Of a stretch of 64,000 nt of DNA, positions 13,599-59,100 are shown piece after piece (the stretch's first letter is position 1; every line of letters begins with the position of its first letter). The stretch comes from Macrostomum lignano. Its lineage: Eukaryota. Location of the stretch: assembly GCA_002269645.1 (NCBI GenBank), contig NIVC01001300.1, forward strand, positions 124,001 to 188,000. The letters are read 5' to 3'. A model generated the notes under the pieces. That model had not been told where the DNA came from and did not search any database. It saw nothing but the letters and a program-made list of their open reading frames with translations. Position numbers and translations under genes: made by a program.

Positions 13599-15673
13599 AT
13601 GCTCTACACTTTTCAGTGGGCCAATACCACCGATGAGGCCATACTGACAGCTATCGAGTTAGAGCGATCGAACCTGTACAGGCTTAGCTCAGCTGACTGG
13701 GTGGAGACAGTCCTGTACACTTTATTGATGTCGCTGGCTCTACTTGGCAACGGTTTTGTACTGGCGGTCACGGCCTGGTATCCCAGCCTGAGGCGCCGAG
13801 TCCCCGGTCTGATGTTGAACTTGGCCGCGTCCAGCCTCCTAGTGAGCTCGGTGTGCATCCCGCTGAAGCTGTCGCTCATCATTAATAAGTCTTGGCTGCT
13901 GGGAAACATTGGCTGCAAGTTGTCAGGCTTCTCTCACGGTGAGCGCTGAGGTGTTTGAGTCTTTTAACTCGTATTGCACACAATGCTGTAGGGTATTTTC
14001 AGTGCTTTCATTATTAATTTCCAGTGTTTCTAACTAGTGCCAATTAGTTTTATCTGTGAGATTCACCCTCACGCCTAAGAGTGGCTAGACCTGCATTTAT
14101 ATTAGAAACTGTAGGGTAGAGATTTGATAGGAGGTTGTATTTAGCCTAGTGGTTAGAGCGTCGCACTCACGACTTAAAGGTCCGGGGTTCGAATCTCGAC
14201 CCACCTTTGTGTCCTAGAGCAAGACACTTTAACTCTGCATTGCTTCAGTTCACCCAGCTGTAAAATGGGTGCCAGCATTAGCTGGGGCAATTGAGGGTGT
14301 CCTTGGACTGAACAGCCGTACGCAGCCTTCAGATACGCCGCGCAATAGCTGCGGCTGGGCTGTCGGTTGCACACCTGGTTGTTAGGGCAGGTTTAATCGA
14401 TTATCATTATTAATTATTATTGTAGAGATGGTAGGTAGTTTAAGTCTTGCCGTAGTGATGAGGTGCTGAATCTACAGAATCTGGTAGGGTACCCTTCCCT
14501 AGTGTGCTAAAAGAGCGTCCTAATCTAATGTCCTAATGTCTCCGATTGAAACTTACAATGAAAACTTTAGGAAAGCCTAGCAAATCAACCCATTAGAGTC
14601 ATTCGGATAAGTGAAGACTTCAGTCAGAATTTAGTCAGATTTAGGCTCAGCAAAATATTTGATGATTAAAGAAAATTCGCGTGTCTCAAAAATACGAGTA
14701 TCTCGGCAGTGCAGAAGGCAACAGGTGGTGCCAGAATGTAAGCTCGTGGTCAGCTTTTTTAGGATGAGAAAGCAAAAAAGTGAAATCCAACACATGGAAT
14801 TAGATAAAAGAGATGCCAGCAGAAAAAGAAGCATAATTTTCCAGACAAATCAAGGGTCAGCGGTCAAGTTCGCAAACCCATTGAAATAAAATTCTATTTT
14901 TGTTCTTTTTGACTGACAAAATTGTAGCCTTTGCTCTTCTGCTCAACATCTGCTCTCTGGTTGCCATGGCAATTATTCGGTCCAGAGCTGGACAGACCCA
15001 GAGCGTTTGGAACCGCCCGGTGGCCATCTGCTGGGTTGCAGCCGTCACGTTCTCCAGCCCGATGCTGTTTATCTACTCGCTGCGCACCGTTTCAATGAAG
15101 CGCCCAGCCTCCGAGGCGCTCAACCTCACGGAGGCCAGCTTCCAAACGCCGTACGCACACTGCGTCGAAGTTTGGCTAAATCAGCACATGCAAAAGTACA
15201 TTTCACTGGCGTTTCTAGCCGCCACAGGGCTGCTGCCGCTGGCCGCCATCTGCATTAGCTACAGCCTCGTGGCTAAGCGGATCCAACAGCTTACAGAACC
15301 GGACGTGCCCCTGATGGCGATGGGAACTCGCCCGGAGATAGTCCTACCAGTGCAAGACACGGCTATTGTCAGACGGAACAAAGCGCTAAGAACAGTCGCT
15401 GTGCTGGTTGGCTGTTTCATAATCTGCTGGCTACCTAAAGAGTTGCTGGTGGTTCTTGCCGATTTTCTGCTGCCGAGTAAGCCGGAACTTGCCAGTCAGC
15501 TGATCAAGTTGCTGCCGTACTTCAACCTGCTGGTCTACCTGCACGCGGCCGCATCGGGCGGTCTGTACTGCTGTCTGAATACGGCATTTAGAGCCCGGAT
15601 TAAGCGGCTGTTTTGCCACGCCAGGCAGCAGATTTTAACTCAAGAACAGCGACTGGATCGCAATATCGATTGA
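13599..15673 (+). CDS. Rhodopsin-class (family A) peptide-receptor-like GPCR, 361 aa, 2 exons
   Basis: Exon 1 13599-13938 (N-glycosylation site NTT, TM1 LALLGNGFV, TM2 NLAAS, WLLGNIGCK; donor CACG|gtgagc). Exon 2 14928-15673 (ttgtag|CC; TM3-TM7, CVEVW in ECL2, TM6 FIICWLP). Total 1086 nt, in frame. Confidence 0.88.
14131..14420 (+). mobile_element. tRNA-derived CORE-type SINE in the GPCR intron
   Basis: A-box-like agcctagtggttagagcg and B-box-like ggttcgaatctc, then gagcaagacactttaactctgcattgcttcagttcacccagctgtaaaatgggt (resembles the MIR CORE domain), ending in an ATT-rich tail. Near-identical copy at 19169. Confidence 0.85.
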
Positions 15674-23044: not shown

Positions 23045-26000
23045 CTAAAACAGTTTATAGAGCAGTAAAACTGAAAACGCAGCAGAAGCCTTGCTCGCCA
23101 GCGTGACCGACGCTGTCGAAGTAGCCAGAACAGGCTCCGGGCCCGGCGCTGGGGCCGGCTTCCGCTTCTCCGCCGCGGCTGCCAACTCCTCCTCAGTCGG
23201 CATCTCCATCCGAAACGGGCCGTTGAATGTCTGGGCACTGCTTTCGCCCAGCTTCTGCGCTGATAGGTCGCGCCTGCGACGACGTCCAACAGCACTGCCG
23301 CAGACCTGGTCGCAGGTGTCTGATGTGTCGCCCTCCGAGCAGATTGTCACGTTGCTGTACACGTAGATAGGCGTACTGCTGGGTATGAGCGTGAACGACA
23401 TGACTTGGAAGATTATTCCAACAGTCTTTGAGTCCCACTGGAAGATGGTCGTTGTCCCAGTACTTGCGCATTTGTCCTTCACTAGGAAATATGTAGAACC
23501 TGTGCCATCGTTCCTGTTCGTGGCCCAGCAGCTGTTCACCACAAGGCGCAAATTCAGCGGGCTGGTCACTTGCACTCTCACATAGACTTTGGTGCCAACG
23601 ACCAGCCTTGAGCCTGGCGTTATCTCATTCCTAAAGTTTCCGCTCATGTAGTCACGGAAGATTCGAACTTCGGACGTGTAAGAGTCACCGCTCTCTACTG
23701 GTGGGACCGTCCGAGCGTCTGGCACGAGTGCGGCCGTCACGTCGCTGGCTTTTGGGATCGCGCAAACGATTTGCATGACGTAGGGCGTGTCCAGATACAC
23801 TCCGCCAACCATGGTGACATTCTTGTACAGACTCGATGTGTAGGTCACGTGGGTTGTGTTTGTGGATTGTACGCTGTTGCATCCCATGTATGGTATGATT
23901 GCCCATACATTGGAGCCATTTTGTCCGACTGTGAAGTTGCACGTGGCTGCATTATAAGTTCCAGCTAGGCTAAGCAGCCACGATGCGGGTACGTCGGCAA
24001 TGGAGAAGTACACAAAAGCTTGGTAGTTGCGGCACTGAACTGTTGGTCGCGGCACCGGCGGCGCAGTGAGGGAAACCGGAGCGCAACGCACCGTGACAGC
24101 TCTGGCCTGAGAGCAGGAGGCGGATGCCACGCCCCAGCCATTGTGCGTGCAGTCGTTGGTGCTGGTGGCACCAGCCGGGCAAGACAGCCCCGACAGCATC
24201 ACCGGATAGGCTAGGGCCACGGTTCGGTACAGACCCGTCATCCCGATTGCATTCGTCGTGCTGGAGGGTAAAAAAAACTTGCAAATTTAATCATGTTTCA
24301 CAAGGGGCTAGCTGTGGTAAATTCGTTTCTATTTTGTTAAGTCCATCAACTCCATCGGCTGACAGACCAGCTGATTAAGTTTATAATATACTGAATGTTT
24401 AGCTTGTACATCCTACTCTGTCCCATTCTCTTTTATCTTTCCGCGTGTCATCGGTTTATACAAAAATAAGGATTTTAACACCGTTTTGTGGTACATGAAA
24501 AGTAGCATATTTTAACTTCAAAAAAGCTTACGCATTCTGGCAGAGCATACGACAAAACATGGTTGCTTCGTTCACTCCGAATCCGGCTGCACAAACGCTG
24601 CCAAAGTTGGTACCAGTGGCGTTCTGAATCAGCACAATGCCCTCGGTCGGCCCCGGCTCAAGCCGCAGGTTGGTGACGTTGCTGTCGCACACGGTTGGCG
24701 CCACAGTCGCCATGTTCGGCGTCACAGTAGACGCAGGAGCGCCTGTTGTCAGCCTGCCCGTACAGATCACAGCAACGTCGTTGCTTCGATTGTAACACGT
24801 GGGTGGCAGATTTGGGCGCACAACGTAACTGCAGGCTGTATTCAGATCCCACGTGCTGGGGGAACCTGGCTGGAAGGTGGTAATAATATAAGGTGGTAAT
24901 TTGCAGGCAGTCAGTCAGTCAGTCAGTCAGTCAGTCAGTCGTCAGTCAGTCAGTCAGTCAGTCAGTCAGTCAGTCAGTCAGTCAGTCAGTCAGTCAGTCA
25001 GTCAGTCAGTCAGTCAGTCAGTCAGTCAGTCAGTCAGTCAGTCAGTCAGTCAGTCAGTCAGTCAGTCAGTCAGTCAGTCAGTCAGTCAGTCAGTCAGTCA
25101 GTCAGTCAGTCAGTCAGTCAGTCAGTCAGTCAGTCAGTCAGTCAGTCAGTCAGTCAGTCAGTCAGTCAGTCAGTCAGTCAGTCAGTCAGTCAGTCAGTCA
25201 GTCAGTCAGTCAGTCAGTCAGTCAGTCAGTCAGTCAGTCAGTCAGTCAGTCAGTCAGTCAGTCAGTCAGTCAGTCAGTCAGTCAGTCAGTCAGTCAGTCA
25301 GTCAGTCAGTCAGTCAGTCAGTCAGTCAGTCAGTCAGTCAGTCAGTCAGTCAGTCAGTCAGTCAGTCAGTCAGTCAGTCAGTCAGTCAGTCAGTCAGTCA
25401 GTCAGTCAGTCAGTCAGTCAGTCAGTCAGCCAGTCAGTCAGTCAGTCCGTCGGTCAGTCAGTCAGCACAACCAGTCGTGGCAATAACAAAGTTGGTGTTC
25501 CCAGTTGTTACAATCGGCGTTGGGATTCTGTAACCAACAATGCCTCTGTAGCCAAGCATGGCACAGATCACTGATGGGGCATTGTTGTCCAGGCCAGAGT
25601 CGCAGTAGCGTCCAACGGAGCCGTCGCTCATGGTCACCTCGACCACGCCTTCTGTTCCGGACAGACCAGACGGGCCGACAAGTCGGACACTCACCGGAGT
25701 CTGGGCGAGCGCGGCTTCAAAGAGGAAATAAAACAAATAAATTATTAATTGGCAGTCATTCTAGTACGGTGATCCCTGAGCAAGTACAAAAGGATGTGCA
25801 GGAGTCCAATCTTTCACATCAGCAACCAACCCTCCTAAACTTGTTGATTGACCCTTCATCGGCTTATATGGCGAAAATTATTGTCACCAATTAAGTACGG
25901 AATCGAAAAAGGTGCGTGTGTACTTTAGAAGTCGGACGCGTTGCCGCTCAGCTACACTGTAAACAACACCGAAAGTATTATTTTTCGATATATATCGCGA

Positions 26001-29067: not shown

Positions 29068-29326
<259 letters not shown>

Positions 29327-29444
29327 ACTACGTAGCACGCAGAAACTGCAGGGTTTTCAGATGTTTTGACGCAAAAAACGCAAATTATACTACTATCTGA
29401 AAAATGAAGTAAGTAGTATACAAAAACGCTATCCTAAGCGTGAT
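29327..29444 (+). repeat. Left terminal inverted repeat (~118 bp), beginning ACTACGTAGCACGCAGAAACTGCAGGG
   Basis: Reverse complement of 38699-38815. The outer ~94 bp differ only by one A-run indel; the inner ~24 bp carry several mismatches. Confidence 0.95.
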
Positions 29445-29977
29445 GTGGCAATATGTAGTCGTAATAATCCATGTGCTCATATTAATTCCATGTACAATAA
29501 TCCCTATCTATCTCAAATTGTACATTAATTCCATGTACATTAATCCCTAAATATCTCAAATTGTACATTAATTCCATGTACATTAATCCATATCTCAAAT
29601 TGTCCATCCCCAATTCTATATGTACAGTGTCATCCCCAGCGCGCGCACCAAAATTACATGTACAATACTACATGTACGCAGAGGCGAGAATTACTAATCT
29701 CATCTACTACCAAATGAGTCAACTAACAGTGTAGCGTACATCATGTATAAGTATTTACAATGAAGATATATTTACATTTAATCAGTAGCATATTACAGGA
29801 ATCGAGACATGTACACCATCACCAGCAAATAGAATATACAGAAAATTTTACATTGTTTTTTCAATAATTTTCTCTTCATAAATGATTTTAAACAGGTTTG
29901 ACATGTAAAATATGTACAACAATAAATAGATTTTACTCAGTCAAATTTAACACGATATCTATTAAGCAAGGGCCACA

Positions 29978-32900
29978 TTATTTATAACCATAAGGCCTGC
30001 TGCAGGCCCCGTACACGCGCTTCGTCAGGACGCGCTGAAACGTCTTGTCCATACTAACAGTGTGTATGGTACAAGACGCCTTGTCGCGCCTAAACTGAAG
30101 CTGCGGCAGCTGCAGGGAGCCGCCGTGTAGTAGGGCACTGCGCAATTCGTCGCTGCGTTCCCGAATCTCCGGAGTCAGGCGGATGCCCTTGCATTTCAGG
30201 ACCTGACTCCGGACACCGGCCGCATCCTCGACAATGTAAGTGTAGAGCTTGGGCCCTCCACTTACAAAGTCGGTCATCCGGCTGCCTGCGGGCACCTCGT
30301 CGGTCCACATTCCGAGGCTCGTGCCATGGGGCGGCTCCCATTGGCCCTCGGAATGCCGGTAAACGACCCTGGGTGTGGGGAGAGAGATAATTAGTTCCAC
30401 ATGCCAACTATTCAATTCTAAAAGAATTTATCAATGCAATACTTACGAGTCAGTGTCGCAGTAAATGGCCCGTTCGCCGAGCCCCTCCAAAGCCTCGTAC
30501 AGGCGCAGCCGGGCCTGCGTGGTCGTAAAGACTCCGATTGGCACATTGGAGTACCTGAATGGCCGCTGATTAAAGTAACGGTGCCGGTACTCTAGCAGCA
30601 TAAACTCGCTGCCAATCGGTTCGCAGGCCTTGACTTTGAGGTTGGGGTCGGTCAGCCGGGCGAGCCAGTCCTCGTAGCTGGATACTATTTCGGTCGATGT
30701 CAGGTCGTCACGCTGACAAAATTTGCCCCAGAGCCTGTGTGTAGTGAAAAGAAGTGCTACTGTTAGTAGAAGAAGAAATCGTTTTAAAAACAGAATTTAT
30801 AATTACTTACGAATTCAAAAAGATTTTCGCTACAAAGCGAAGTCCTGGGTTGGGCTCGACCTTGTCCAGCGTGACGCCCTCCTTTGCAAAGAAATCGGCA
30901 ATGTAGGCGGCCTTGTCTTCATCCGACATGCCGGGGGAGCCGCTCGACTCAGCCTTCAGCTTGAGGAAGGTGCTAACATAGTCACTGAACAGGCCGGTCC
31001 GCTTCTCTGTCCAGTAGGCTAGCGCGTGCACCACCTGCAGTCGGTAGCCCAACTGGAAGGCCTTCCTCAGCTCCGGCGTTGCCCAGGTACCAGTCAGTGC
31101 CCGCTGCTCGTCTGAGTGGTCACAATCGTCGCCGCACTGCTGCTCCATACAGGTGCGGCAAAGCCCAAAAAAGAGCTTCTTTTGCACTCTGTAGGGCAGC
31201 AGCGGAATGTGCAAATCTGACGGCGGCAACACAGTCACTTTGGCAATACCAAAGTAACTAGCCAGCGCGTCAGAATCTAGCACTTGCGGCGTAGGATGTT
31301 GCACCGGGTGGCCAATCGGGTACGGGTCCTTCGACTGCACCGTCGGGTACAGAGAGACCTGCAAGTTGAAATAAAACATTATTTTCATAAACTGTATTTT
31401 TGCAAAACATTCTACTATATCAGTAGTATCACTACTCACCACATCCCGATATTTGAGAGTCTCAGTCTCGCTGGCCACAGCATGCGGGATAAAACATTCT
31501 ACGCGGCCGCCGTAGAGAGCATCTTCCATCTTGAGTGGAGCGCGCAGATGTGCAGTTGCGGCAATGAAATCGGCCTGCGACGCCAATACAGTGTCGTATT
31601 CGTGCTCCCAAATGACTCGAACACTGTAATTGTGCCGCTCCAACTCGCGAGTGAACCACTCAGTCTCGTGGCGGATATGGCTCAGAGGCTGCCGTTTGAG
31701 TGGGTGGACAGCATCCTGATCAGGCATGCACTGCTCGCAGCCATGGTAGAAACAGCCATGAAACTGCAAGACAGTGTTGCTCGCCTCATCGAAGCCGTCC
31801 ACCTTGCGGCCGAGAATGACAGCCTCGCCGCCAGTAGAGTCGCAGGTTCGCAGCCGCCCGCCAAATTCGGTGGCATTCAAATAGGCCAGCCACTTGCGCG
31901 CCTTGAATGACTGCTGGTCGGCCTGCCGGGCAATCACGCCGACCGAGTTGGGCTCCATAAACCGGGTGGTGAAAACGGCCATTGCCAAACTGGCAATCGT
32001 ATTGGCCTGAACAAACGGTTCCAGGCCGTCACAAATTTCACCAATTATTGTCCTGTACTTGATGCAGCCCTCGCGAAGCAGGACTGTGTCGCTCAAACAA
32101 TAATCGAGATACTCCCGATTAAAGTTGAACAACTCGCCCTGTCGCGAGGCTAGCCAAGCACAGATTGAGTCATAGTCCTTGTTTGCTTTGCCGCCATAAT
32201 ATTCAATAGCCGGGTAGGGGCCCACGTAGTTCCAATTAGCCGGCTTGTTGAACTCGTGGGGAAACGTCCCCTTGGCCAGCTTTGTGTCAGCGAGCCCCAG
32301 CGCTTTTGGGAATTGCGCAAGCGGGATTGGTATAAAGTTTAGAGAATCTTTGAATACCAATTTATCCACCGTCATGCTCATTAGCCGGCTGCCCTGGAAC
32401 AGAACTTGGGGCCGCTTCTTGGCCAGGCCGTTGAGCAGAGCGCCAAGCAGTAGAAACGAATCGTAGCCTGATGCATTGTGCGCGACAACAATGGCGCCGC
32501 CGCGGAATGTGGTGCTCAGCCAGGTGAAAAAAGCATTCAGCGAGGCCGGGCCCACAGCCACAAAATCGGCCATTTGGCAGGCGCAGTCTGAGTGGCTGAC
32601 GCAATTGGAGAATTCCTCCCCCAGATCGCGGCCAGTCAGACAGTTGGCGGCGCTATGCAGGCCATTGCAGAGGCGGCAAGTCTCGCGCGGAAAAGCCCGG
32701 CCGGAGCAGGTCTCGCAGCACGTGACGGCAGTCACCAGATGCACGTGATGCTGCTTCTCATCATCCGTGTATGTTTCCGTATCGTAGAACACGTACGGCA
32801 TAGTCGAAGCTTTCACTTTGGGAGCCTTGACGAAGCACAAATGCGAGCCGGCCTCGTCGTACTGTTTACACAGTGGGCACTTGACATGCCCGCACTTGTG

Positions 32901-35305
32901 ATCCGGCTCCTTTTGACCGGCTTTCAGGTCTTCGCAATACCCGCAATTGGGGCAGACACGGGTTGAGCTGCAGCGCGACCGGCCAGCCCGGTTCTTGCGA
33001 AGGTGGTTGTCGAAGCACTGCTGATTGTAGCACTTGAGGCCACAATCAGCGCAGCGCTTATAGTCACACCGCAGGCTCTTGCAATTGGAGCCAGGCGCTT
33101 TGCATTGAGGGCAGGTGTTGGCGCACTTGTGCTCTCCAGAGTTGCAATCATACGGCTGCTGGCAGCGGTCACAATAGCGGCGGGCTCCGAAAAATGGCGG
33201 CACCTTGCACACCGCGTTAAAGTGTTCGCCAATTAGGTGCAGATTCAGCACTTCGCGGCCGGGTAGGGCGTACACGCACGTATTGCCCTCCTCGGCACTG
33301 TACACCCGGACGCCGAAATCTCGGCCGGGCGACTGAGCGTTCATGGCGGCGAGCAGTTGGGGGAGCACGTCAACCCCGAAAGGCCCGGCCTGTGTGATGG
33401 TTGATAAAGACTACAACATTTGTATATTAATAAAAATGCAAATTAAAATGCGCAAGAACATTTTTTACTCACCGAATACAATTTGGCGGTAATTTGTAAT
33501 TCTCCAGTAAGCTTCTTCTGCATTGGGGAGTCGGCCTTGATTGTTTGCCACGTAGTTCTCGTGATGACTTTGGCCTGCAGGTCGGCAAAGGCCTTGGCGA
33601 CAAGCAGCGCTCGAATTAGACAGCGCTTGTCGCTGTTGGCGATGATGACATAATTATAGCCCATAGCATGCCTGGCCTGAATGTGGCGCTCCGCCGCATC
33701 TAAGCTGCCGCAGCCGCCCCGCGGGACCCAGGCCTTGAGCAAAAACAATTTAAAGTTGTTGCCCAAGACGCTGGAGTCCGACTGCAGCACCTTGTTGATA
33801 TGCTTGAAGACAAGCTCTGCAGTGAAGCGGCTGCGGCGGACGGGCGGGACATTGATGGCGAGCATCATATTGTCCGCCGTCAGCTTAGATGCGACGAAGT
33901 CATCTGCATTCAGGTCGGCGCAGAGGGTTGCTATTATTTTCTCAAATGTTGAGCGAATATCGCTCAAATTTGTGAATACTATCTCGTATTCGACCCCTTT
34001 TGCCTTAAATTTTGGCAGGGCCTTTGCCCCGCCAAGACGCGCAATGAAACCTGAAAAATGGAGGGTTTTGAAATTAGAATTGCGAGAGGCTGCAGGTGAA
34101 TGACTCATGAAATCAACTCCTTACCATCGCCTTCGACAGTGTCGGGCTGGGGCGGGGGTTGAAATTGAGCCAAATCTGCAATAAAAATGCGCATGGCGAC
34201 TAAAATTCTGACCGCTTGGAATTTTACAACTGTCAAAAACTTTTGATGATTGCCTGCAGCAGCAGCAATTTTATCGCCCCACCCCAAGCAACAAAAATCG
34301 GCGAGTTGTAAAAACCCCAACTCGGCACGTTCCGACACGTAGCAACAAAAGAAATGTGGGGTTGATTGACCCCCGCTTCGAATTTTAGGCTGTCAAAAAT
34401 GTTTGATTGATGACCCTGATAACACTGATCCTGCCGCAGCAGACATTGTAAAATTTAAGAAAACCCCTATCAGCACGTGCCTCCATTGTACCTCCTTGAC
34501 ACCTAGCAACAATACCGCGCGGCCGCTTTTGGATTTTTAAAGCTGTCTGATTAATAACCCTCACTGTAGCAGCCAAGTTTTATTGCTGCCAAAACCCCTA
34601 CTGTCAATTGCAGCGGTGATTACATAATCATGCCCAAAAATCGGGGGTTGATTTTATCACTGCCGCCTGCCCGCCCCCCGCTAAGTCACGCGCTCGCCAC
34701 AGGATTGCTGTTTTTGCTTCTCTAGTCACATAACCCCAGAAATTTTATGACTATCCTCTACAGGCATTATCCGGCTATACTGCTGTTGCGGATATTCTCT
34801 AAAACTCTGTTATTTCAATAGGCCTGAATTTGAGAAATCCAACTTCAACATCTATGTCAAGAGGAAATTCAGAAATTTTAAGCCAAAATGAATGTTAAAG
34901 ATGGAAAGATGTGGCTTCAAAGAAAGCCCATATTTCAACAAGCGTTAAGTTTGCAAATCACACAAATGCTAAAGCTGAAAAGCAATTACAGAAATTTTAA
35001 GCCAAAATGAATGTTAAAGATGGAAAGCTGTGGTTTCAAAGAAAGCCCATATTTCAACAAGCGTGAAGTTTGCAAATCACACACAAATGCTAAAGCAATT
35101 ATACAGCCCTATTTTTCTGATTTTAGATTTTGCAAATGCTAAAAGCATAGTTTAACGCGCGCAGAGACTCACCTAGCTGTCGTCCCCTCTTTGCTGCCGG
35201 AGGCTGATGCTGCTGCTGTTGTTGCTGCGGTTGCTGCCTGGATGGGCCGGCCTGCCCCCACAAGGCTGAAATAGCCGCTTCCGCAGCAGAGCGCTTCGAT
35301 GCCAT
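29978..35305 (-). CDS. pPolB: Protein-primed family B DNA polymerase (Maverick/Polinton type), ~1,312 aa, 7 exons
   Basis: Exons 35305-35173, 34175-34125, 34050-33473, 33389 (or 33410)-31440, 31358-30811, 30734-30447, 30368-29978 total 3,939 nt, in frame with no stops. Motifs: DKRCLIRAL, Cys-rich zinc region, ExoI FYDTET, ExoII HNASGYD, ExoIII YCLSD, YGGRVE, Pol A DVVSLYP, Pol B KIFLNSLWGKF, Pol C YCDTDS, GPKLY, KCKG. Exons 1-2 are the least certain. Confidence 0.92.
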
Positions 35306-35491
35306 TTCGATGGGGAAGGTAGATGGTTGTTGATGCTGCTGGTGATGTTAATGATGCTGCTGCAGCTGATGTTAGAGGCAGAGGGCTGGTGGCTGTCGTT
35401 GCTTCTGCTGTTGCTGCTAGCTGTGATGCTGCTGTTGTGGCTTCTGCTGCTGGCTGCTTTTGCTGATGCGGCTGCAGCAGCTCTCACCCGC

Positions 35492-35499
35492 TTTATATA
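35492..35499 (-). promoter_or_regulatory. Candidate TATA box (TATATAAA) for pPolB
   Basis: ggTATATAAAgcgg on the minus strand, ~190 nt upstream of the ATG at 35305, following a GC-rich stretch. Confidence 0.6.
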
Positions 35500-35569
35500 C
35501 CCCGCGAGAGGGAGGATGGGGTAGGGGCACGAGAGGTGTGCGTGGTTTTCTTTCCCGGGTCTATATTTT

Positions 35570-36037
35570 CTAGATTAGTGTACGATTGTACACTCGGTTC
35601 CGCATTTGGTATAGAAAAGTTGGGGTCGAAAATACCCCATAAATTCTTTTCTCATGCGGTTTTTTATTGGATCTGAGCGGAGCCACCCAACCAGCATTCT
35701 CGCAGGAGTGGAAACTGCTGCTCCGCGCGCCAGAGTACAGTCTCTTAATTAGGAAGACAGCTTCCTCTTGCAGCATGTCTTTTCGACTTAAATCTGATAG
35801 AAAACGGTGTTTATTCAAAATACAATACCTTGGCGGACCAATAATAGCTAAATACAGATGAAAATATGAAAGATAACTTCTGTGGTTTTTAAGGCCCGCC
35901 GGTCTCTGCGAGAAAATGGTTGTTAAAAATCGCTGTATCAATTTAATAACCTTGGTGAAATGGGGCTTGTGTGCAAAGCATCCGATTGACAGAGGCTTGG
36001 TGAAGAGTAATAGTCGATGAAAAGCTCTTGCCATCAT
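35570..36037 (-). CDS. Hypothetical 155-aa ORF inside the element, no recognisable family
   Basis: ATG-initiated, non-repetitive ORF in AT-rich DNA, co-oriented with and just upstream of pPolB; no motif recognised. Confidence 0.25.
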   Translation of the reverse strand: MMARAFHRLLLFTKPLSIGCFAHKPHFTKVIKLIQRFLTTIFSQRPAGLKNHRSYLSYFHLYLAIIGPPRYCILNKHRFLSDLSRKDMLQEEAVFLIKRLYSGARSSSFHSCENAGWVAPLRSNKKPHEKRIYGVFSTPTFLYQMRNRVYNRTLI

Positions 36038-38698
36038 CTAAAATATCCACAAAGAGTAATGAAGTGACGGAGATCCTCTGTCACAAGCCAAAACAGAGAG
36101 ACAGAGTTTTCTACTTCTGTTTACGTAATGTTTAGGGATGGACCTGGGGTTATAGGGACAGAGAGTCAGTTATGGCATTTACGCGGTAGTAAAGAATTGC
36201 CTTGGTGAGGCTGGGGTAGGTGTTGTGCTGTTCTCTCCATATTGACGAACATTAATAGTCCTGGGTTGAATTTTGATATGGCTAGAATGTATGTAGTGGA
36301 GAATCTTTGAATTGAAGGGTGATTCAACATGCAAAGTATGCAACAAAACTGATTCAGTGCATCTAAAAGAGGCTGTTGGGAGCTTCGGAACTGAGAATAA
36401 CGTTTAAAATAGCATCAATGGCATGATTTAGTAATCGAAATCAATCGAACACTGAAAACTTTAAGTTTAATAGCAGACTGTGTTTTTAGCCCCAATTTTT
36501 ACAGTGTCTATACAATATTTCCCCAGCTTCTTGGGCAATATACATGCCTATTTGAATGATTAAACAGCATTTGTGATGATTTATTAGCTAACATTATTAT
36601 CTCTATTGATAAAATGACAGATTTCGATCCATAAAGTAAGCATTTTAACGTTAAAAATCGAAAAAATGAGGAAAACTCGTGGTTTTCGTGAAAAAGTTTG
36701 CATTTCTAATAAATTTTTACCATTAATCAACCATTTCTTAGGCTGGGCTGGCTTGTGGACTTCCGTGTGGGATCATTCTTGCTTCGAAGCCGTCTCAAGT
36801 AAAGTTGAAACGGCATTTGGGTAAATTAACTGTTGAAGTTTCCAGTGATGAAATTACTGATTTTGATCAACAAAGTCTAACTTTTAACGTTAAAATTAAA
36901 GAAACTGTAGAAAACTCGCCTTTTATGAAATGTGCTTTTTACGAGCTACTAATTTAGCTTTTAATAAACTTGGACGGAATTCCAACTTGGAGAGGTCAGT
37001 GGGTGATTCATTCCTGCTTCGAGCGATCGAACTTTCATAGAGTCTGAAAGCTTGAAGTGAGAGGGTAGTGGAAGCGATAGAATTGGCATAGCAGCACGTT
37101 TTTGGGCGGGTGGACTTCACTACTTCTAGTATACCGCATTGGTCATAGTGCCAAAGTATTTCTGTGACAAAACACATCTATAGAATTCAGTCTCGGAATT
37201 GAATGCAGAGGAGACACTGATTCATAGGCTGTGTACATTGACAGATGCAGGGGTATTGGGTCGATGCAGTTGGAGGTTGACTCGGATTTGCTCAGATTCG
37301 TGGGGTTGATGTGTGCATTGAAAGTTAGTTTCTTGCTAACTGGGGCGGCATGGATGACGTAATTGGAGAAGAGGGGTTTTGCTGAATGAGGTTTAATATA
37401 GGGTCCGTGCTGTGAAAAGATCTGTTTGAACACTGAAATGGAGAGAGGGGTTGGAATTCCTTGGCATTTAGAAGGGTGCAGAGAGAAACAGGGACAAGTG
37501 GTTCAATTCGATTTGCTATATAGGGGTCTGCTGAGGGGTGGATGTTTTCGAACAAGTCTTGGGGTTGAATTTTGAATATGGCCGGAGATAAAGGGTGATT
37601 CAACATGCAACATAATTAATTCCATAGTGCACACCAGCGTCAGTGGCATATTTTGCGGATTACAGCGCGACAAGGGTCTTGTATCATCCGCACTGTGATA
37701 CGAAGCATATAAAACATTGCTTTCACAGTCTTGAATTTAGAGGCCGACTAAATAAATCGTATACGTATCATATATATACGTCTTTTGAAAACTTTTTTGA
37801 CTCGGGGAGAGGGGTTGGGAATGACGTAATTGTCTCGGAGTGGCGACGAGGGCTGAATTCTAGAGGGATGAAGTATAAAAGGAGTGGATATAACAGTGTG
37901 GACAGCAATTTTTGGCTAACTCATGCACCTCCTCCGCCAATTTTGGGGATGGGCGGCGGTTTCTGCGTACACTGTTTGCTTTTTGAGGGTCAGCGGAATA
38001 TGAAGAGTTAATTCTTGGATGTGCGGCCGCTTTGCAAATTTTGGGTATAATTTGGGTGGGTGGGCGCTTCTGCATGCTCTCTGTTTCAACTATTGAAAAT
38101 AGTTGAAAATAAACATGATATCAGCTTTTTCAATATAAAAATGTAAAATTATGAATGTAATCTTTTTCAGTAAGAATCTCGACTTGTAAACTCTACTAAT
38201 GGTAGTATGGCGTAATCAGTTACATTTGGTTTTGAGTAATTCACATATAAATATGCATATATGACGTGTTCTGTAAAACTTGGATGTTAGTTGACTCATT
38301 TGGTAGTAGGTGAGATTGTACAGTTGGCGCGCACACACCGACCCACCTCTGCGCATATACTGTGCTGTACACGTAACAATTAGTGTTTCGAGTTGTACAT
38401 ATAATCTTGTGGGGTTGACGATTCAAATACGCAGAGCGGGGGCCGTCGTGTAGATTGGGGATTAATGTACATAATGTACTGTACATATAAAAATTGTCAT
38501 AGAAGTAGATTAATGCGCAAGTGTACATATAGAAGGACTGTACAAGTTGACAATACACATGTAGAATTGGGATAGACATGGAAGTAGACAATGTACATAT
38601 ACAATTTGAGATAGATAGGGATTAATGCAGTACATGGGATTAATGTACACATATGAGTACATGGATTAATGTACATATACGAGTACATATTAAAGTAT

Positions 38699-38815
38699 AT
38701 CACGCTTAGGGTATCGTTTTCATATACTACTTACTTCATTTTCAGATAGTAGTATAATTTGCGTTTTTTGCGTCAAAACATCTGAAAACCCTGCAGTTTC
38801 TGCGTGCTACGTAGT
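38699..38815 (-). repeat. Right terminal inverted repeat, ending CTGCGTGCTACGTAGT
   Basis: Matches the left TIR as described. Confidence 0.95.
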
Positions 38816-38886
<71 letters not shown>

Positions 38887-38903
38887 TTACTACTACTACT
38901 ACT
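38816..38903. repeat. (TAC)n microsatellite, ~29 units, right flank of the pPolB element
   Basis: Directly visible; resumes TAC phase immediately after the TIR. Confidence 0.97.
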
Positions 38904-39295
38904 AGTAGTTACCTTTGCCAAGCCTCTCTAAATTTCATCAGCACGTTGACGATGCACATGTCTCTGCATCGGCTCTGAATTCGTTGGTACGACCAAATTG
39001 GAGCTACTGGACGTTTAACAGGTGGCACCAGAGATGACTATTTGGACACACACACACACCCTGTTGCTATAATTTATCTAGTTTCACTGATCAAGCCTCG
39101 ACAGTGTGCAAGTCTCAACTACTGGACATCCTTAGCTAGTCTCTCAAGCATTCCCCGTCATCATCCCGGCGCCGGCGGCACCTTCAACAGATGACACCAG
39201 GTGACTATGGACATCCCGTTGCTACTATGTTAGATTTTTCTTATTAAGCTCCAATAATGGGCAAACTTCAACTGCTGGACTGATTCGTTTTAGAC

Positions 39296-47617: not shown

Positions 47618-49523
47618 ATGTCGGGCTCAAAGAATCCGCCAATTAGTGACGATGACGTCAGCAGCGGCGATGACGTCAGCAGTGACGAGGAGATGTCGCA
47701 TTCAAATAGCGAACCCAATCGAAGCCAATGCCGGGAGCAGCCGGCCCCGGGCCCTGTGCTCTTTCTGCACCCGGATCTGGGCATAGGCGGCGCCGAACGA
47801 GCAATGGTGGACATGGCTCTGGCATTGAAAGATCGCGGCTATCCAGTCTCCTTCATCACGGCGCATCACGATAAGTCGCACTGCTTTGAGGAGACGCGCA
47901 ACGGCCAGCTGGACGTGTTTGTCAGCGCATCCTGGCTGCCGAGGTCTCTCATGGGCAGGTGCATCGCTCTGTGTGCCTGTCTGCGTATGCTGTGGGCAGC
48001 TCTGTACGTGCTGATCGGCTGGAGGGGAGCCAATTTTCCTCGGGCGGTTATTGTGGATCAGGTTCGGAATTTTTTCACTTACAAGTGTATTTTGTCTCTT
48101 ATGGCTACTTTATTTCTGTAGATAGATAGAGATAGAGATCCCCCTGTCTGTCCTTACCCTCTCTTCCACCCCTTGACCCTCTTTTCCCTCTTCCCCCTCT
48201 TCCGTCCCGTCCCTTTCCCTCTACCCTCTCTCCCCCTCTTCCCCCTCTACCCTCTCGCCCCCTCTGCCCTCTCTTTCCCCTCTACCCTCTCTTCCCACTT
48301 TTCCCCCTCTACCCTCTCTCCCCTCTTCCCCTCTTCCCCTCTTCCCCCTCTTTCCTCTCTACTGTCTCTCTGCCCCTTCGATTTTCTCTTCCCCTCTTCC
48401 CCATTTCCACCCTCTACTATCTATCCCGCTCTTCCCCTCCCAAACTACCCTCTTTTCCGCATGTTCCCTGTCTTTTTAATACTTTTCGCATCTTCTCCCT
48501 TTGCCTCCTATAGATCCAGTCTTTTCCCTCTTTTCCTTCCCCATAGTACCCTCTCCGCGATTCACCATTGGTCCACAGGTCTCAGCCCCGGTGCCTCTGC
48601 TACGCTGGTTCTCCCGGCGAACCCTGTTCTACTGCCACTACCCGGACCTGCTGCTCTCTACTCAACGCTCCGGTCGTCTGAAACGTATGTATCGTCGCCC
48701 GCTGGACGCCCTGGAAGCCTGGACCACCGGCCGGGCTGATGAACTGATGGTGAACAGCCGGTTTACAGCCAGCGTGGTCAGATCCACCTTCCCGGCCCTG
48801 GCCAGCCGCAAACTGCACATCGTCTACCCGGTACCCAACTTCGCCTCGCTGGACATCGCCGCTGCCGATCCGTCTGGTGACGAAGAGCTTCAAGCCTGCC
48901 TGCCGGAGCCGTCCGCTCGCCGGAGCCTGTTCCTATCATTAAACCGTTACGAACGTAAAAAGAATGTCGGATTGGCTTTGAAAGCCTTTGCACGATTGTT
49001 GAACGATCAAGGACGAGGCTCTGCAGCTTCAGCTCATCTGGTCATTGCTGGTGGCTACGATTCGAGACTGTTGGAGAATGTGGAACACTTTGAAGAGTTG
49101 CGTCAGCTGGCTGAGGAGCTGCAGGTGTCGAATCGGGTCACCTTTCTGCGCAGTTGCAGCTCACCTGCTAAAGCGGCCCTACTAAAGATCGCCACTGCTC
49201 TGATCTATACTCCATCTGGTGAGCATTTTGGCATTGTGCCAGTTGAAGCTCAGTATCTCGGCTGCCCCGTGGTGGCAGTGAATAATGGCGGACCATTGGA
49301 GACTGTACTACATGGAGCTACTGGCTTCTTGTGCGAGCCTGGCGAGGCTGAGTTTTCGGCTGCAATGGGTCGGCTGGTTAATGAGGAGGGCCTGCGCACC
49401 GCTATGGGTCGAGCTGGTAGGCGTCACGTGACCGACAAGTTCTCCAATGCCGCCTTTGCCGATGCTGTGGTCAGAGTGCTGCAGAGGGACAGTGAGGCTT
49501 CTGCTGCTGCTTCTAGTGACTGA
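47618..49523 (+). CDS. ALG2: Alpha-1,3/1,6-mannosyltransferase ALG2 (GT4), 462 aa, 2 exons
   Basis: Exon 1 47618-48061 (FLHPDLGIGGAER…VDQ; donor CAG|gttcgg). Exon 2 48579-49523 (cacag|VSAPVPLL, FYCHYPDLLL, SLNRYERKKN, EHFGIVPVEA). Intron is TC-rich low complexity. Confidence 0.96.
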
Positions 49524-50200: not shown

Positions 50201-51299
50201 TCTCCAATGTGTTAATTGCAACCCGATAACTAAATTTATTAGTTTTAAACTTTTGCATCACCATAACGCTTATACATGTAGACGGTAACATCATTGCTAA
50301 CCACATATTGTAACAGATATTATCCATTTAATGTATGGCATGCATAATTCAACAAAAGATGTTTACAAGAATACAATATTTACCTAGTAAAATCCCGGAT
50401 GCTACGGCTATTTATGCTTTGCGCGACACTTAATGATGGATAAACATAATTATATTTTTTTTCTGCTCTCTCACCCTGTCTCCGTTTCTCAATCTATTTT
50501 TAGAATCCTACTCTTTTCAATCTTAGTACCGTATTATTCTCCAGCTCAAAGCTTATGTTCTTCAAGTTCAGTGTAGACTCAACTGTATTAATTGTGTTTG
50601 AAGCTTTTTAATTGCCAGCGGAGAAAATCTAATATAAAATCGATACATATCGCCTCTAGAAGCAGAGATCCCAATTTTGTTTTGCTTGAAGCCAACACCA
50701 GCCTATCAAATTAGTAGCAAGCATATTTATCTTAACTGCGAGTGTTACATGCGTTTATTGCTTTTTTAAAAATAATCTGCGATCAAAATCTATTGTGACA
50801 GAAAAATTGAGTTTTTTTTTCAAATATAAATGTATTTACTGACACTAGGGCTGCAAGCCTGCTTGGTAATGGGTTGAATTCATCTGAGTCTACATGCATT
50901 TTAAAAATCTTTTTTATTAGTCTCACGAATGTTTTATTAGTAAACAATTTAGATTAGTTTGTCAAGTTTTTCTGAAAGTTTTTTCTTGAAATATATAAGA
51001 TTTGCTTTCATATACTACTTACGCTTAGTTGGTCAAGTAGTGTTATAATAATCTTAGATATAATTTTTAAATTAGCGGTTAAACTATGTAAGCATCTCAG
51101 CAATTCCCCTTTAAGCCTTTAGCATCTCAGCAATTCCCCTTCAAGCGTTTGACATCTCCAAAATTCCCCCTTAAGCGTTTTAGCATCTCATCAATTCCCC
51201 GTAAGCCAAAAATTAGATTTTAAATGTTTTAGGCCTAATTTCAGATGTACTTTATATTTGTAAGAAAGCTCCCTAAAAAGGACAAAACCGTTAATATTG

Positions 51300-52343
51300 A
51301 TGGACTGCTCCCTCTGCTATTGGTCAGGCATTGTGGCGGCGGCCTTAGGAGCCGCCAGCCTTCTGTTCAGCCTGTGCTACTGGCTAGTTCTCAACCGAAT
51401 TCTCCCTAGCAACAAGTTGAATCCTCGCGGAGGTCATTTTGTGGTGTCGGGTGGCTCTAGCGGAATTGGTTTTGCTCTGTGCCGGCGTCTGCGCCGTCTG
51501 GGAGCTCATCTGACTATTGTTGCTAGGGACGCCAAGAAGTTAGCGGTTGCCAAGGCCGAATTGCTAGCCGATTCGCCTGAACTGAGCGAATCCGAGGCTG
51601 CTATCTATCTGTTATCAATTGATTTAACTGGCGATCCGGATAAGCTTCAAGCTGATCTTGACAGTCACTTAGCAACTGTGACGCAACCGTTGCTAGGCGT
51701 TGTCAACTGCGCCGGCTACGCTTTGCCGTTAGAATTTGAACAGCTGAGTCTGGCTCAGCACGAGAGTCAGATGGCTACTAATTATACTGCTGCAATGCGG
51801 CTGACTCACTGCCTGCTGCCCAGGCTGTTGGCATCAGGCCAGCCCGCTAGAATTGCCTTCCTGTCCAGTGTGGCTGGTCAGCTGGGTGTCTACGGCTACA
51901 CCGGCTACGGGGCTGCCAAGTTCGCCCTCCGCGGCTTGGCCGAAGCCCTTCAGATGGAGCTGGCAGCCAGCCAAGTGAGACTGGTGCTGGCGTTCCCACC
52001 GGACACGGACACGCCCGGCTATCAGACTGAGAACGCCAGCAAGCCGGCTATCACTGCTAGCATCAGTGCCAATATCTCGCTGTATTCTGCCGATCAGATT
52101 GCTGAGCAGTTGGTTAAAGATTTGATTGATGGACGGTTTTTGAGTTGCTTCGGCTCGGATGGTTGGCTGGTTGGCTGTCTGACTGCAGGGTTCAGTCCGC
52201 CTACTGGCTGGTTGGATACCATGGCCCAGTGCGGTTTGGGTGGCCTGTTCCGTGTCATCGGTTTGGTCTATCTCAAGTCGCTGTACCAGCTGGTGCGAGA
52301 TGGCAAACGGGCTGCCGCTGCTACTGATAAAAAGTCTGATTGA
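51300..52343 (+). CDS. KDSR: 3-ketodihydrosphingosine reductase (SDR family), single exon, 347 aa
   Basis: N-terminal TM segment, SGGSSGIG, YTGYGAAKFALRGLAEALQME (YxxxK) and FPPDTDTPG, all characteristic of KDSR/TSC10. Confidence 0.92.
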   Translation: MDCSLCYWSGIVAAALGAASLLFSLCYWLVLNRILPSNKLNPRGGHFVVSGGSSGIGFALCRRLRRLGAHLTIVARDAKKLAVAKAELLADSPELSESEAAIYLLSIDLTGDPDKLQADLDSHLATVTQPLLGVVNCAGYALPLEFEQLSLAQHESQMATNYTAAMRLTHCLLPRLLASGQPARIAFLSSVAGQLGVYGYTGYGAAKFALRGLAEALQMELAASQVRLVLAFPPDTDTPGYQTENASKPAITASISANISLYSADQIAEQLVKDLIDGRFLSCFGSDGWLVGCLTAGFSPPTGWLDTMAQCGLGGLFRVIGLVYLKSLYQLVRDGKRAAAATDKKSD

Positions 52344-56183: not shown

Positions 56184-59100
56184 GTTCACTTGCGACTGCT
56201 CTGCAACCGACTTCAACGGACCGAACTGCCAGAGCCGCATTGACGGCTGCGCCAGCAACCCGTGCAGCCACAACGCCACCTGCACTGACGGGCTCAGAGA
56301 CTTCAGCTGCAGCTGCTTCAGCGGCTACTCAGGAAAGACCTGCTCCGATGACATTCCGGACTGCTCGCCGAATCCGTGCCAGTTCGGTGGCGCCTGTCTG
56401 GAGCGCAGCAACCAGGCTCTGTATGGAAACCCGACGATGCCAGCGCCGTTCAACGGCAGCTTCAGCTACGCGCTGGCTGCCGGTTTCGTCTGCCTCTGCA
56501 AAAATGGTGAGAAGATCTTGTACGCAAAGACTGCATAGATTCCAATCTGTTTTTCTACTTAACTACAACAGGTACCAACGGTGACACGTGCGAAATCAAC
56601 CCGAACGACTGTCTGGATCCGACAACCAACCGCAGCGTGTGCGCTCACGCGTCGAGCTGCACGGACGGCCTGGCCTCATTCACCTGCCACTGCCTGCCTG
56701 GCTACGAGGGCCTAACCTGCAGCCGAGAGATCGACGTGAGTACGTGAGTCATGGGCAGCTGTTTCTCTCAGATCGACCAGGTGCGTGCCAACGAATCATA
56801 ATCTTCTTGCCGTGTAACTAACTTTTCACAGGTGCAACTGCACTGAGGGATGGCTCGGACCCAATTGTACAATGAAAGACCATTGCTATTTTGCTGACCA
56901 ATACTGCCCTAACGGAACGGAGTGCGTTAAATTGGACTCTGGCGGATTCGAGTGTAAGTTACAGACTACTGTTAGTAGCACTCTCTTGTATTTCTATTTT
57001 GACATGTGGCTAAATTTCCTCTGAAACTCAGGCCGCACAGCTGCAACATTCAGCAGCTCTCTGATATCGCCATCAAGCAGCCAGATTGCATTATCGGTGA
57101 CTGGTCTCAACGAAACTCTGACTGCGGTTACCGGCTGGGGCCGCACTCGCCAGTCAGACTGCCATCTACTGACCGTGCTCAGCGGCAGTCATCAGTTGTC
57201 AGTTGGTTGCGAGTCCGGACACTTTAAAGTCTCTCTTGACGACCGGACAGTATTGGTGGCGGTTTCCATAGCAACTGGTTTACCATTTAACTTTATTAGT
57301 TGTGCTGAGGGCACCTTTTTGACCGCTGGTGTGTCAATCAATGCCAGCGATTTCCGGGTGTTGGCAGACACAACGCCGATTCCAGCTGGTTTGATCCTGG
57401 ATTCTTCTGCTACGGTTACAGCTGGGGGCCCCGGATTTAAAGGTTGCCTTGACAACTTGCGACTCAACGGTTACTTGGTGCCACTCGTTAATCGCTCCCT
57501 GCCAAGCGGCTACTCGGGATTCAATTGGATGGCTGCGTCGTCAATCCTGCCTGGTTGTCATGGCGACGCGGTTTGCCAGAAAACTAGCGAAGGAAGTTCC
57601 AATGTCTGCTTGAATGGTGGCCAATGTGTGGCTCTTTGGAACGACTTCAAATGCGACTGCCCTGCTGGGTTTCTTGGCAAAGAGTGTTCCATCAAGGAAG
57701 CGTCGCCCGCTGATTTTCCCACAGCCATCGTTGTTGCGGTCAGCGCCGCCCTTGTTGTCATCTTTATTGGTGAGGAGTTCCTGTGAGCTGTAACAGCATG
57801 TATTAACCCTAAGACTTGTAAAAAGATACAAATGCTATAAAAATTCATCATCATTATCACATCATTCACCATGTCACAGATCCCATCTATTATTTCAAAG
57901 ACCCGATCCATCGTCTCACAGCACTCATATGGGGGTTGTAGCCTAGTGATTAGAGCGTCGGACTCACGACAGGAAGGTCGAGGTTCGATCCTCGACCTAA
58001 ATCAGAACAGTTGAAGTAAGGAACGCAAAGACGCGAGGTATCGGTTGACAGAGAAGAAGATTATGCCCTCAGTATATTTTGGCCTGGTTGTAGCCGTAAC
58101 AAAATAAGGAGTGGGGTGTGCGTGTGTGTGTGTGTGTGTGTGTAATTTTTTACTAGCGAGCTTGACTTAGCAAGTCAACGCATAAGTATTTCCATAGATA
58201 CTACACCTCTCCCTTTCCTGCCTGGTATCGTACAGGCATCTTTAGCAATCCTCTATTCCTTAGATTGTAACCACGTCCAAGTTGTTGGTTCAATCCAATT
58301 TCCTTCGGAGACTGACCACTGCTTGCATTTGACTTTTCTGTAGCATGTGAAGCATCCTGCTCTGTTTCTGAAGAAATAGTTACTTTGAAATCATTCCATT
58401 CCAGCTTTGGTTCAATGGTCGCTTGTAGTCGTTGTCTAGTCTTCAGAAGCTAATTCGCATGTCGCTTCCAAAGTAGATCACCGACTCTAACAGAGTATGT
58501 GTTAATGGGCTGTACGTCTCAGTATAGTCCATATAGTCCATCTGGCTTTTCCTCGTCGTAAATATTTTATCTGGACTCGCTCTCCGAAAGAAAATTCCAC
58601 AGACGCAGTTATTTTTGCGTCATCATAATACTATTTTTCTTGTTCTGGACACACAGAACTTTCGATTCCGCGCCCGGAAAGAGAAATGGCAGTTTTTTCC
58701 TAGATTTCTACCAAAAAGAAGTTCAGCTGGAGTCTTTCCAGTTGTGCTGTGAGGTGTTGTTTTTGGCTCGGAATAAGAAATTTGAAAGTTGTTTTCGCAT
58801 GTCACCTTTGCCTGATGCTTTCAATGCATTTTTTATTTGTTTTACCATATTTTCGGACAATTTCTTTGATCTTGGGTCTTGAGCAAACCAAATCGGACAA
58901 AGATTTCTCTCAATGACCCAATCTTATTCTTAGATGTTGCTTTCTTCATGTGAATGAGTGCAGGGAACTTACTAGTAGCATCAACGTCACCCAAAAACAT
59001 CCAGGACTTGAATGGTTCCACAAAGTCTACATAAATTCTCGTCCAAAGAGTAGTAGGCCACGAGAATGGGCTTAGGGGTGCTTTAGGTGGATTTGAACGA

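Follow-up and report, generated by a model that had tools for sequence, protein, structure and literature searches.

Recurrent spliceosomal introns in the catalytic motifs of Polinton-type DNA polymerase genes, including that of an integrase-less element in Macrostomum lignano

The pPolB gene of a multicopy Polinton-derived element in the flatworm Macrostomum lignano is a working gene interrupted by five ordinary spliceosomal introns, three of which split the catalytic motifs A, B and C. Intron-split Polinton polymerases of this kind are real, and the bias of their introns towards the catalytic motifs is non-random and recurrent; here it is found in an integrase-less offshoot of the Polintons. 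The gene was studied in a 64,000-nucleotide stretch of contig NIVC01001300.1 (hereafter the window). The published view, in the accessible text of PMC2814812, is that both inteins and group I introns prefer conserved sites and that spliceosomal introns do not, whereas the gains described here are repeated at catalytic motifs. Introns that spread themselves (homing introns) would be expected to give repeated gains at the same motif, ordinary introns would not, and we favour the explanation that the motif introns are relics of site-targeted, homing-like intron spread (probability roughly 0.45). A small multicopy gene family thereby addresses the origin of new spliceosomal introns and of parallel gains at the same site, and a homing route to such introns becomes testable from genomes alone. 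No description of motif-located introns in Polinton polymerases was found in the literature searched, which lay outside subscription journals, Repbase and supplements, and Macrostomum was named in none of the top 25 of 231 papers listed in one search.

Structure of the polymerase gene

An earlier note on this DNA had reported an intron in each of the three catalytic motifs, and these were recovered on the minus strand at the positions given there. Each has a GTRAGT donor and a CAG acceptor, and every exon has one open frame. Two further introns were identified in the variable N-terminus, the motif introns thus being three of the five in the gene. In the resulting model the probable first coding exon (34125..34194, minus strand as for all parts of the gene) begins with an ATG at 34194 and is inferred, the same junction being present in UniRef model P0001. 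It is followed by a probable intron 1 (34124-34051, 74 nt, phase 1), by exon 2 (33473..34050), an open frame encoding the N-terminal region, and by intron 2 (33472-33390, 83 nt, phase 0), which lies in a non-conserved region. Exon 3 (33389-31440) is open throughout its 1,950 nt, as had been claimed, and encodes a Cys-rich region, the exonuclease, a Vsr-like insert (about 31560-31920) and the start of the polymerase domain (PF03175). The motif-A intron (31439-31359, 81 nt, phase 0) interrupts DV|VSLYP. Exon 4 (30811..31358) extends from the second half of motif A to the first half of motif B, where the motif-B intron (30810-30735, 76 nt, phase 2) lies within the Ser codon of N-S-LWGK; exon 5 (30447..30734) continues from there to motif C, where the third motif intron (30446-30369, 78 nt, phase 2) lies within the Ser codon of DTD-S-V. 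The last exon (29978..30368) contains the stop. The five-intron model has a coding length of 3,825 nt (1,274 aa).

The predicted protein matched PF03175 (E 4e-27), retained motifs A, B and C and the exonuclease, and was placed among animal Polinton polymerases in trees. The closest database proteins were labelled Macrostomum lignano and the nearest from outside the host were animal Polinton polymerases (30-38%). Comparison of 19 copies with that in the window gave a pooled dN/dS of 0.073 for the exons, a sign that selection acts on the gene, and the exonuclease and polymerase exons examined were open in 9 of the 19. The Vsr-like insert was matched weakly, by a family profile against 1VSR (E 0.0016), and Pfam gave no Vsr detection in the window's own segment.

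Spliceosomal nature and removal of the introns

The GC content of the motif introns was 0.27-0.36 against 0.57-0.60 in the exons. In the 20 best genomic copies, window included, intron lengths ranged over 81-87 nt (A), 69-78 nt (B) and 74-89 nt (C), often not a multiple of three, and the GT..AG ends were retained in 19, 19 and 20 copies, respectively. Indel events per 100 sites numbered 1.1-2.7 in introns and 0.01-0.16 in exons, with an indel density in introns at least seven times that of any exon, and no intron loss was seen among the 20 copies. GT-AG ends, the GTRAGT donor, a pyrimidine-rich acceptor and free length drift are all features of major-class spliceosomal introns. Intron A was in frame and stop-free in 12 of the 20 copies and frame-shifting in the other eight, which rules it out as a translated protein insert. 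A group I or II intron or an intein was likewise ruled out by stops, frameshifts, phase 2 and the lack of any intron family among five weak Rfam matches. Comparison of 28 intron pairs showed no relationship between the introns (lowest shuffle share 0.015), and on this set an introner origin was rejected.

Intron C was skipped exactly in contigs of all three sequencing runs guessed to be RNA, which came from three studies, and was not skipped in contigs of one run of unknown kind; such contigs give neither level, strand nor tissue, and the RNA nature of the runs is itself a guess. The host spliceosome removes at least intron C. Among the joints listed, contigs stopped fitting at the donors of both intron A and intron B, an indirect sign of splicing, and a further indirect sign came from one contig covering exactly the exon between introns B and C. 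Together with the AT-richness and the length drift at preserved GT-AG splice sites, the skipping of intron C in RNA-like contigs upholds two points of the earlier note, that the introns are spliceosomal and that expression depends on host splicing.

Placement of introns in other polymerase loci

Given five introns, the chance of finding one in each motif window was 9e-6 to 5e-5, and a conservation-profile test of four introns against 85 homologues gave a Fisher p of 0.004-0.018 (0.011-0.033 in the polymerase domain alone). Because the window had been picked for its pattern of motif introns, other DNA was tested. Introns were called with a profile-to-DNA spliced aligner, which when run on the window found all three motif introns but gave a wrong acceptor for intron 2 and one spurious call. 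Calls were counted if they broke the frame or held a stop and had a GC content at least 0.10 below that of the flanks, a filter set after the first set of loci had been viewed. This first set comprised 84 unrelated loci, namely four viral loci and the best 80 of 406 metagenome relatives ranked by match quality, a ranking that may hide long introns in the metagenome set. Introns were present in 14 of the 84 loci at 13 distinct sites, 10 of them falling in the most conserved 15% of windows (p 1e-6); the excess persisted when neighbouring sites were merged (7 of 10, p 1e-4) and when the AT filter was omitted (10 of 24, p 1.5e-3). Besides motifs A, B and C of the polymerase, the introns interrupted motif II of the exonuclease and, in the Vsr-like insert, the HGC motif.

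In a held-out set of 47 loci, seven had introns, at eight sites, and only two of these sites were conserved (p 0.41). This pre-fixed conservation test failed because one lineage has five introns outside the motifs. Pooling all 131 foreign loci, of which 110 had no passing intron, 11 of 20 sites were conserved (p 1.3e-4). In windows of 12 columns around motifs A, B and C we counted 8 of 20 lineage-level gains against 0.72 expected (p 2e-7), distributed over six of nine lineages, so that the enrichment over random placement which the earlier note had asked about is borne out. Restricted to held-out lineages, the motif-window test, run after the failure of the held-out conservation test, gave 2 of 7 (p 0.03). 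The placement of introns in the motifs is non-random and recurrent.

Several loci in these sets merit separate description. A Polinton polymerase lineage (L277, L281, L284) carries five clear introns, none in a motif. Forty-seven polymerase loci (L243-L289) derive from records titled bacterial, which are probably eukaryotic contigs binned in, and some have spliceosomal introns. A clade comprising L168, L184 and L246-L259 has a single phase-1 intron only, near the polymerase N-terminus.

Independent gains at the same sites

Phylogenetic analysis was based on quick trees and FastTree, the first-set tree leaving out 3 of 131 rows with short coverage. Carriers were scattered among intron-free relatives, requiring eight changes, five of them forced by starred branches, on a tree of 32 author-chosen rows of 172 with the motif columns removed. 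Topology tests on these rows rejected a single clade for the 12 rows with motif introns (p-AU 7e-8) and for the four rows, representing three lineages, that share the window's motif-B site (p-AU 2e-27). The motif-B intron of the window occurs at the same site and in the same phase in the unrelated loci L218 and L287, splitting a TCN Ser codon in the window and an AGY codon in the other two. Within each motif the sites lie 1-8 bases apart, and same-site introns of distant lineages had no sequence in common beyond a 7-base donor in one pair (L218 and L287). Intron gain at these same motifs took place independently in several unrelated Polinton lineages.

The earlier note had proposed intron positions as a mark of family history, and this holds at short range. 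The window's element belongs to family A, and a sister family B (about 68-70% identical, about 45 near-identical matches in the genome) has introns at the same four tested sites and in the same phases; the positions thus mark these two local families, 68% alike, whose intron sequences are unalignable. Beyond them the proposal breaks down, as the motif-B site is found again in lineages for which monophyly was rejected, and in such lineages it is unsafe to define families by a common intron position.

Two sources of such a pattern were ruled out. Splice-like contexts (AG|G, G|G and similar) were not enriched in conserved columns (0.12-0.19 against 0.17 in 12 intron-free loci), which excludes a proto-splice bias. 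Transfer from host polymerase genes is excluded by the unbroken motifs of host Pol delta, alpha and zeta.

Origin of the motif introns

A homing-like origin would require a nuclease with a conserved motif's DNA as its target, which would cleave polymerase alleles lacking the intron while related elements replicate together in the same nucleus; the intron-bearing allele, being immune, would act as repair template and the intron would spread. The nuclease may have been encoded in the intron and subsequently lost, in a mirusvirus-like manner, or provided in trans, for example by the Vsr- or HNH-type domains of Polinton polymerases. Fixed introns would shrink to host-typical size and be spliced as routine, and would persist because the enzyme stays functional only if they are removed exactly. 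The element, for its part, would copy its DNA with its own polymerase and borrow the integrase of another element. In favour of homing, the intron positions in each motif are confined to a few bases, a pattern that cleavage at one place would produce. In the window's polymerase family the Vsr-like insert is, by hypothesis and judging from its sequence, a putative source of the nuclease. Nuclease inserts in Polinton polymerases are documented in the available parts of PMC10748475 and PMC11161782, the latter interpreting them as traces of intein invasion, and both collaborative and trans homing are described in what is accessible of PMC2988022.

No ORF-bearing intron was present in the 131 foreign loci or in those local copies that were examined, nor was any passing intron of the foreign loci ORF-sized. 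Free-standing homing endonucleases were absent from the 37 of 63 neighbouring ORFs that were scanned, and a search of viral contigs for long ORF-bearing introns, using one motif-B-plus-donor pattern, gave 13 matches, none of them a polymerase. Because neither an ORF-bearing intron nor a free-standing homing nuclease was found, homing is put forward as a hypothesis. A close known parallel is the spliceosomal homing introns (shintrons) of mirusviruses, which, according to PMC12768974, are likewise GT-AG introns recurring at fixed sites, and whose host genes are core genes of a virus-like nuclear DNA element. Here too a core gene has fixed target sites; unlike shintrons as that text presents them, the introns are short (60-125 nt; 69-89 nt in the window family), lack an endonuclease ORF and occupy a polymerase gene rather than a virion gene. 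Inteins and self-splicing introns resemble the present introns in their placement in catalytic motifs, and an ORF-less intron can be spread by a trans-acting nuclease; the introns here, by contrast, are not self-splicing, given the lack of an Rfam intron match, and are not translated. The intein sites of archaeal polymerases presumably lie 2-6 codons from the intron sites of the window, with no coincidence. Introners inside dinoflagellate Polinton-like elements (PMC12166617, as far as its text was available) also place spliceosomal introns within such elements, but they are repeated look-alikes, unlike the mutually unrelated introns (28 pairs) found here.

Among the other explanations the best placed, though we consider it unlikely, is survivorship: introns would arrive at random and be lost by imprecise deletion wherever small indels are tolerated, only those in catalytic motifs lasting. 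This does without a nuclease, in keeping with none having been found; for inteins and group I introns the argument is established (accessible parts of PMC2814812 and PMC2988022), and the lineage with five non-motif introns looks as a young cohort would. In its pure form it is weakened by non-motif introns that have likewise been retained across lineages 68-76% alike, the families compared being 68% and 76% alike. The absence of any loss among the 20 copies also speaks against it, and it leaves unexplained why, with many stretches conserved to the same degree, it is motif B, and one exact site in it, that recurs.

Ancient introns of common descent, followed by numerous losses and slight slides, or horizontal exchange of gene segments by recombination at the motifs, would account for the spacing of only 1-8 bases between sites in a motif and for the unusual donor common to L218 and L287, and Polinton polymerases are known to be exchanged (PMC10748475, in its available text). 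We judge this improbable in view of the nesting of carriers among intron-free relatives, the 110 of 131 foreign loci without a passing intron, and the different Ser codon families split at the shared motif-B site.

A regulatory switch, in which germline- or stage-restricted splicing of the motif introns gates the polymerase, had been suggested in the earlier note, found no support and is also improbable. Regulated splicing has a parallel in the third intron of the P element, retention of an intron would kill the enzyme, and spliced and unspliced forms of intron C occurred together in two of the three RNA-like runs. The unspliced forms may, however, be DNA or pre-mRNA, the splice sites match the consensus, and spliced forms were present in three studies. 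Nor does a switch explain the placement in motifs, because any single frame-breaking intron anywhere in the gene could do the job.

Chance combined with detection bias, whereby profile alignment finds introns best in conserved protein and readers flag motif cases, agrees with the non-significant held-out conservation test and with the window having been picked for its pattern. We think it highly improbable, since the aligner also found introns in poorly conserved regions, the enrichment persists without the AT filter, and some search patterns demanded intact motifs and so were biased against the result. Least credible is evasion of small RNAs by introns that break, in the nascent transcript, DNA stretches shared between Polinton families: the motifs may well be the most shared stretches, but the target is restored in the mature mRNA, and lineages only 37-46% alike in protein are unlikely to have long exact DNA matches.

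The element carrying the gene

The gene is part of a Polinton/Maverick-derived element of 9,489 bp (29327..38815) inserted in a (TAC)n microsatellite. Its terminal inverted repeats (outer part 29327..29444 on the plus strand; opposite end 38699..38815 on the minus strand) are perfect over 77 nt, with patchy similarity extending to about 29920, and terminate in 5'-ACTACGT. The microsatellite around the window copy (29068-29331 and 38816-38904) resembles the element's end and is absent around the other seven copies; (TAC)n arrays were accordingly ruled out as part of the ends, being the target site of the window copy only. A 6-bp target duplication was found in all eight family A copies, two of which lie within simple repeats and are uninformative, and in all four family B copies. 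A DNA search of the same genome returned 49 matches from the 40 of 175 candidates that were scored.

The PF03175 polymerase, terminal repeats, 6-bp target duplication and many dispersed copies are those of animal Polintons of the pPolB2-VSR type, according to the available text of PMC10748475, which covers Polinton size, repeats, target duplication and Vsr and HNH inserts. The element differs from Polintons and Mavericks in its five introns: intact vertebrate Mavericks have intron-free ORFs (PMC8097293, accessible part), in line with the earlier note's statement that such polymerase genes are usually intron-free. It is also smaller, 9-10 kb against 13-25 kb, and no integrase, protease or convincing ATPase was found. 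Specifically, none of 12 end-to-end elements matched the integrase of a canonical element from the same genome or the protease of its canonical Polintons; none of 17 proteins scanned contained rve; and one of the 12 gave a weak match to the packaging ATPase (44 aa, E 0.008). Twenty-seven ORFs of canonical elements used to look for a capsid gave no match, though none of the 27 is named a capsid by Pfam. Eleven of the elements measured 8.8-10.4 kb, and one with an internal insertion 13.8 kb. A PC4-like ORF was present in all four family B elements and one of eight family A elements, and a dUTPase ORF in one family A copy (PC4-like and dUTPase ORFs at L023:8183-8998, L080:716-1249 and L024:807-1334).

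In the canonical Polintons of this genome the polymerase ORFs are long and unbroken, and the genome gave 124 matches to the integrase. Two canonical families end in 5'-AGTAGT..ACTACT-3', whereas families A and B end in 5'-ACTAC..GTAGT-3'. Polymerase-less elements with the latter ends were fetched in eight cases (L136-L143, on contigs C982, C657, C2863, C293, C2536, C625, C176 and C56) and all proved to be non-coding fold-backs, giant palindromes of 7.6-9.5 kb whose arms were at least 99.5% alike in seven of the eight and whose 6-bp target duplications were readable in six. The idea of a partner segment carrying an integrase under the same ends was rejected on these eight. The fold-backs probably arose by strand-displacement replication, with integration in trans. 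An integrase family at a greater distance (58%) was followed to a point short of its ends. The element works like a Polinton but falls outside the group on the integrase. ORF- and motif-based screens for Polintons miss intron-split lineages such as this one.

A broader reading, which we offer tentatively, is that Polinton polymerase genes are a second home of homing spliceosomal introns after mirusviruses, and the first in animals: Polinton nucleases would cut rivals in the DNA of the catalytic motifs, and by this means introns of ordinary appearance would be driven into active sites time after time. The flatworm carrier would in addition be a Polinton offshoot that lacks an integrase, replicates itself, has an end sequence of its own and is accompanied by giant fold-back satellites.

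Other features were observed in the genome and in the window. A separate Polinton family (region L135:3284-3389, L144 and L145) has a GT-AG intron of 95-112 nt in its integrase gene, close to the start and not within the catalytic core, and the L144 copy is itself a large palindrome. The copy on C2286 (L028:7610 to L027:2283) contains a long ORF of about 4.7 kb which by eye resembles a non-LTR retrotransposon insertion. Nested or inverted clusters of element pieces occur on contig C157 (55500-95500) and on C4430, C3085, C2301 and C3189, together with pairs of polymerase or integrase matches in inverted orientation. Host exons in the window encode a rhodopsin-family receptor (14885-15673), ZP/SRCR (23045-24286), glycosyltransferase 1 (48480-49523), a short-chain dehydrogenase (51264-52343) and EGF/laminin G (57025-57786). 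Minisatellite arrays are numerous throughout the window, and a short telomere-like (CTAACC)n tract lies at 2864-2919.
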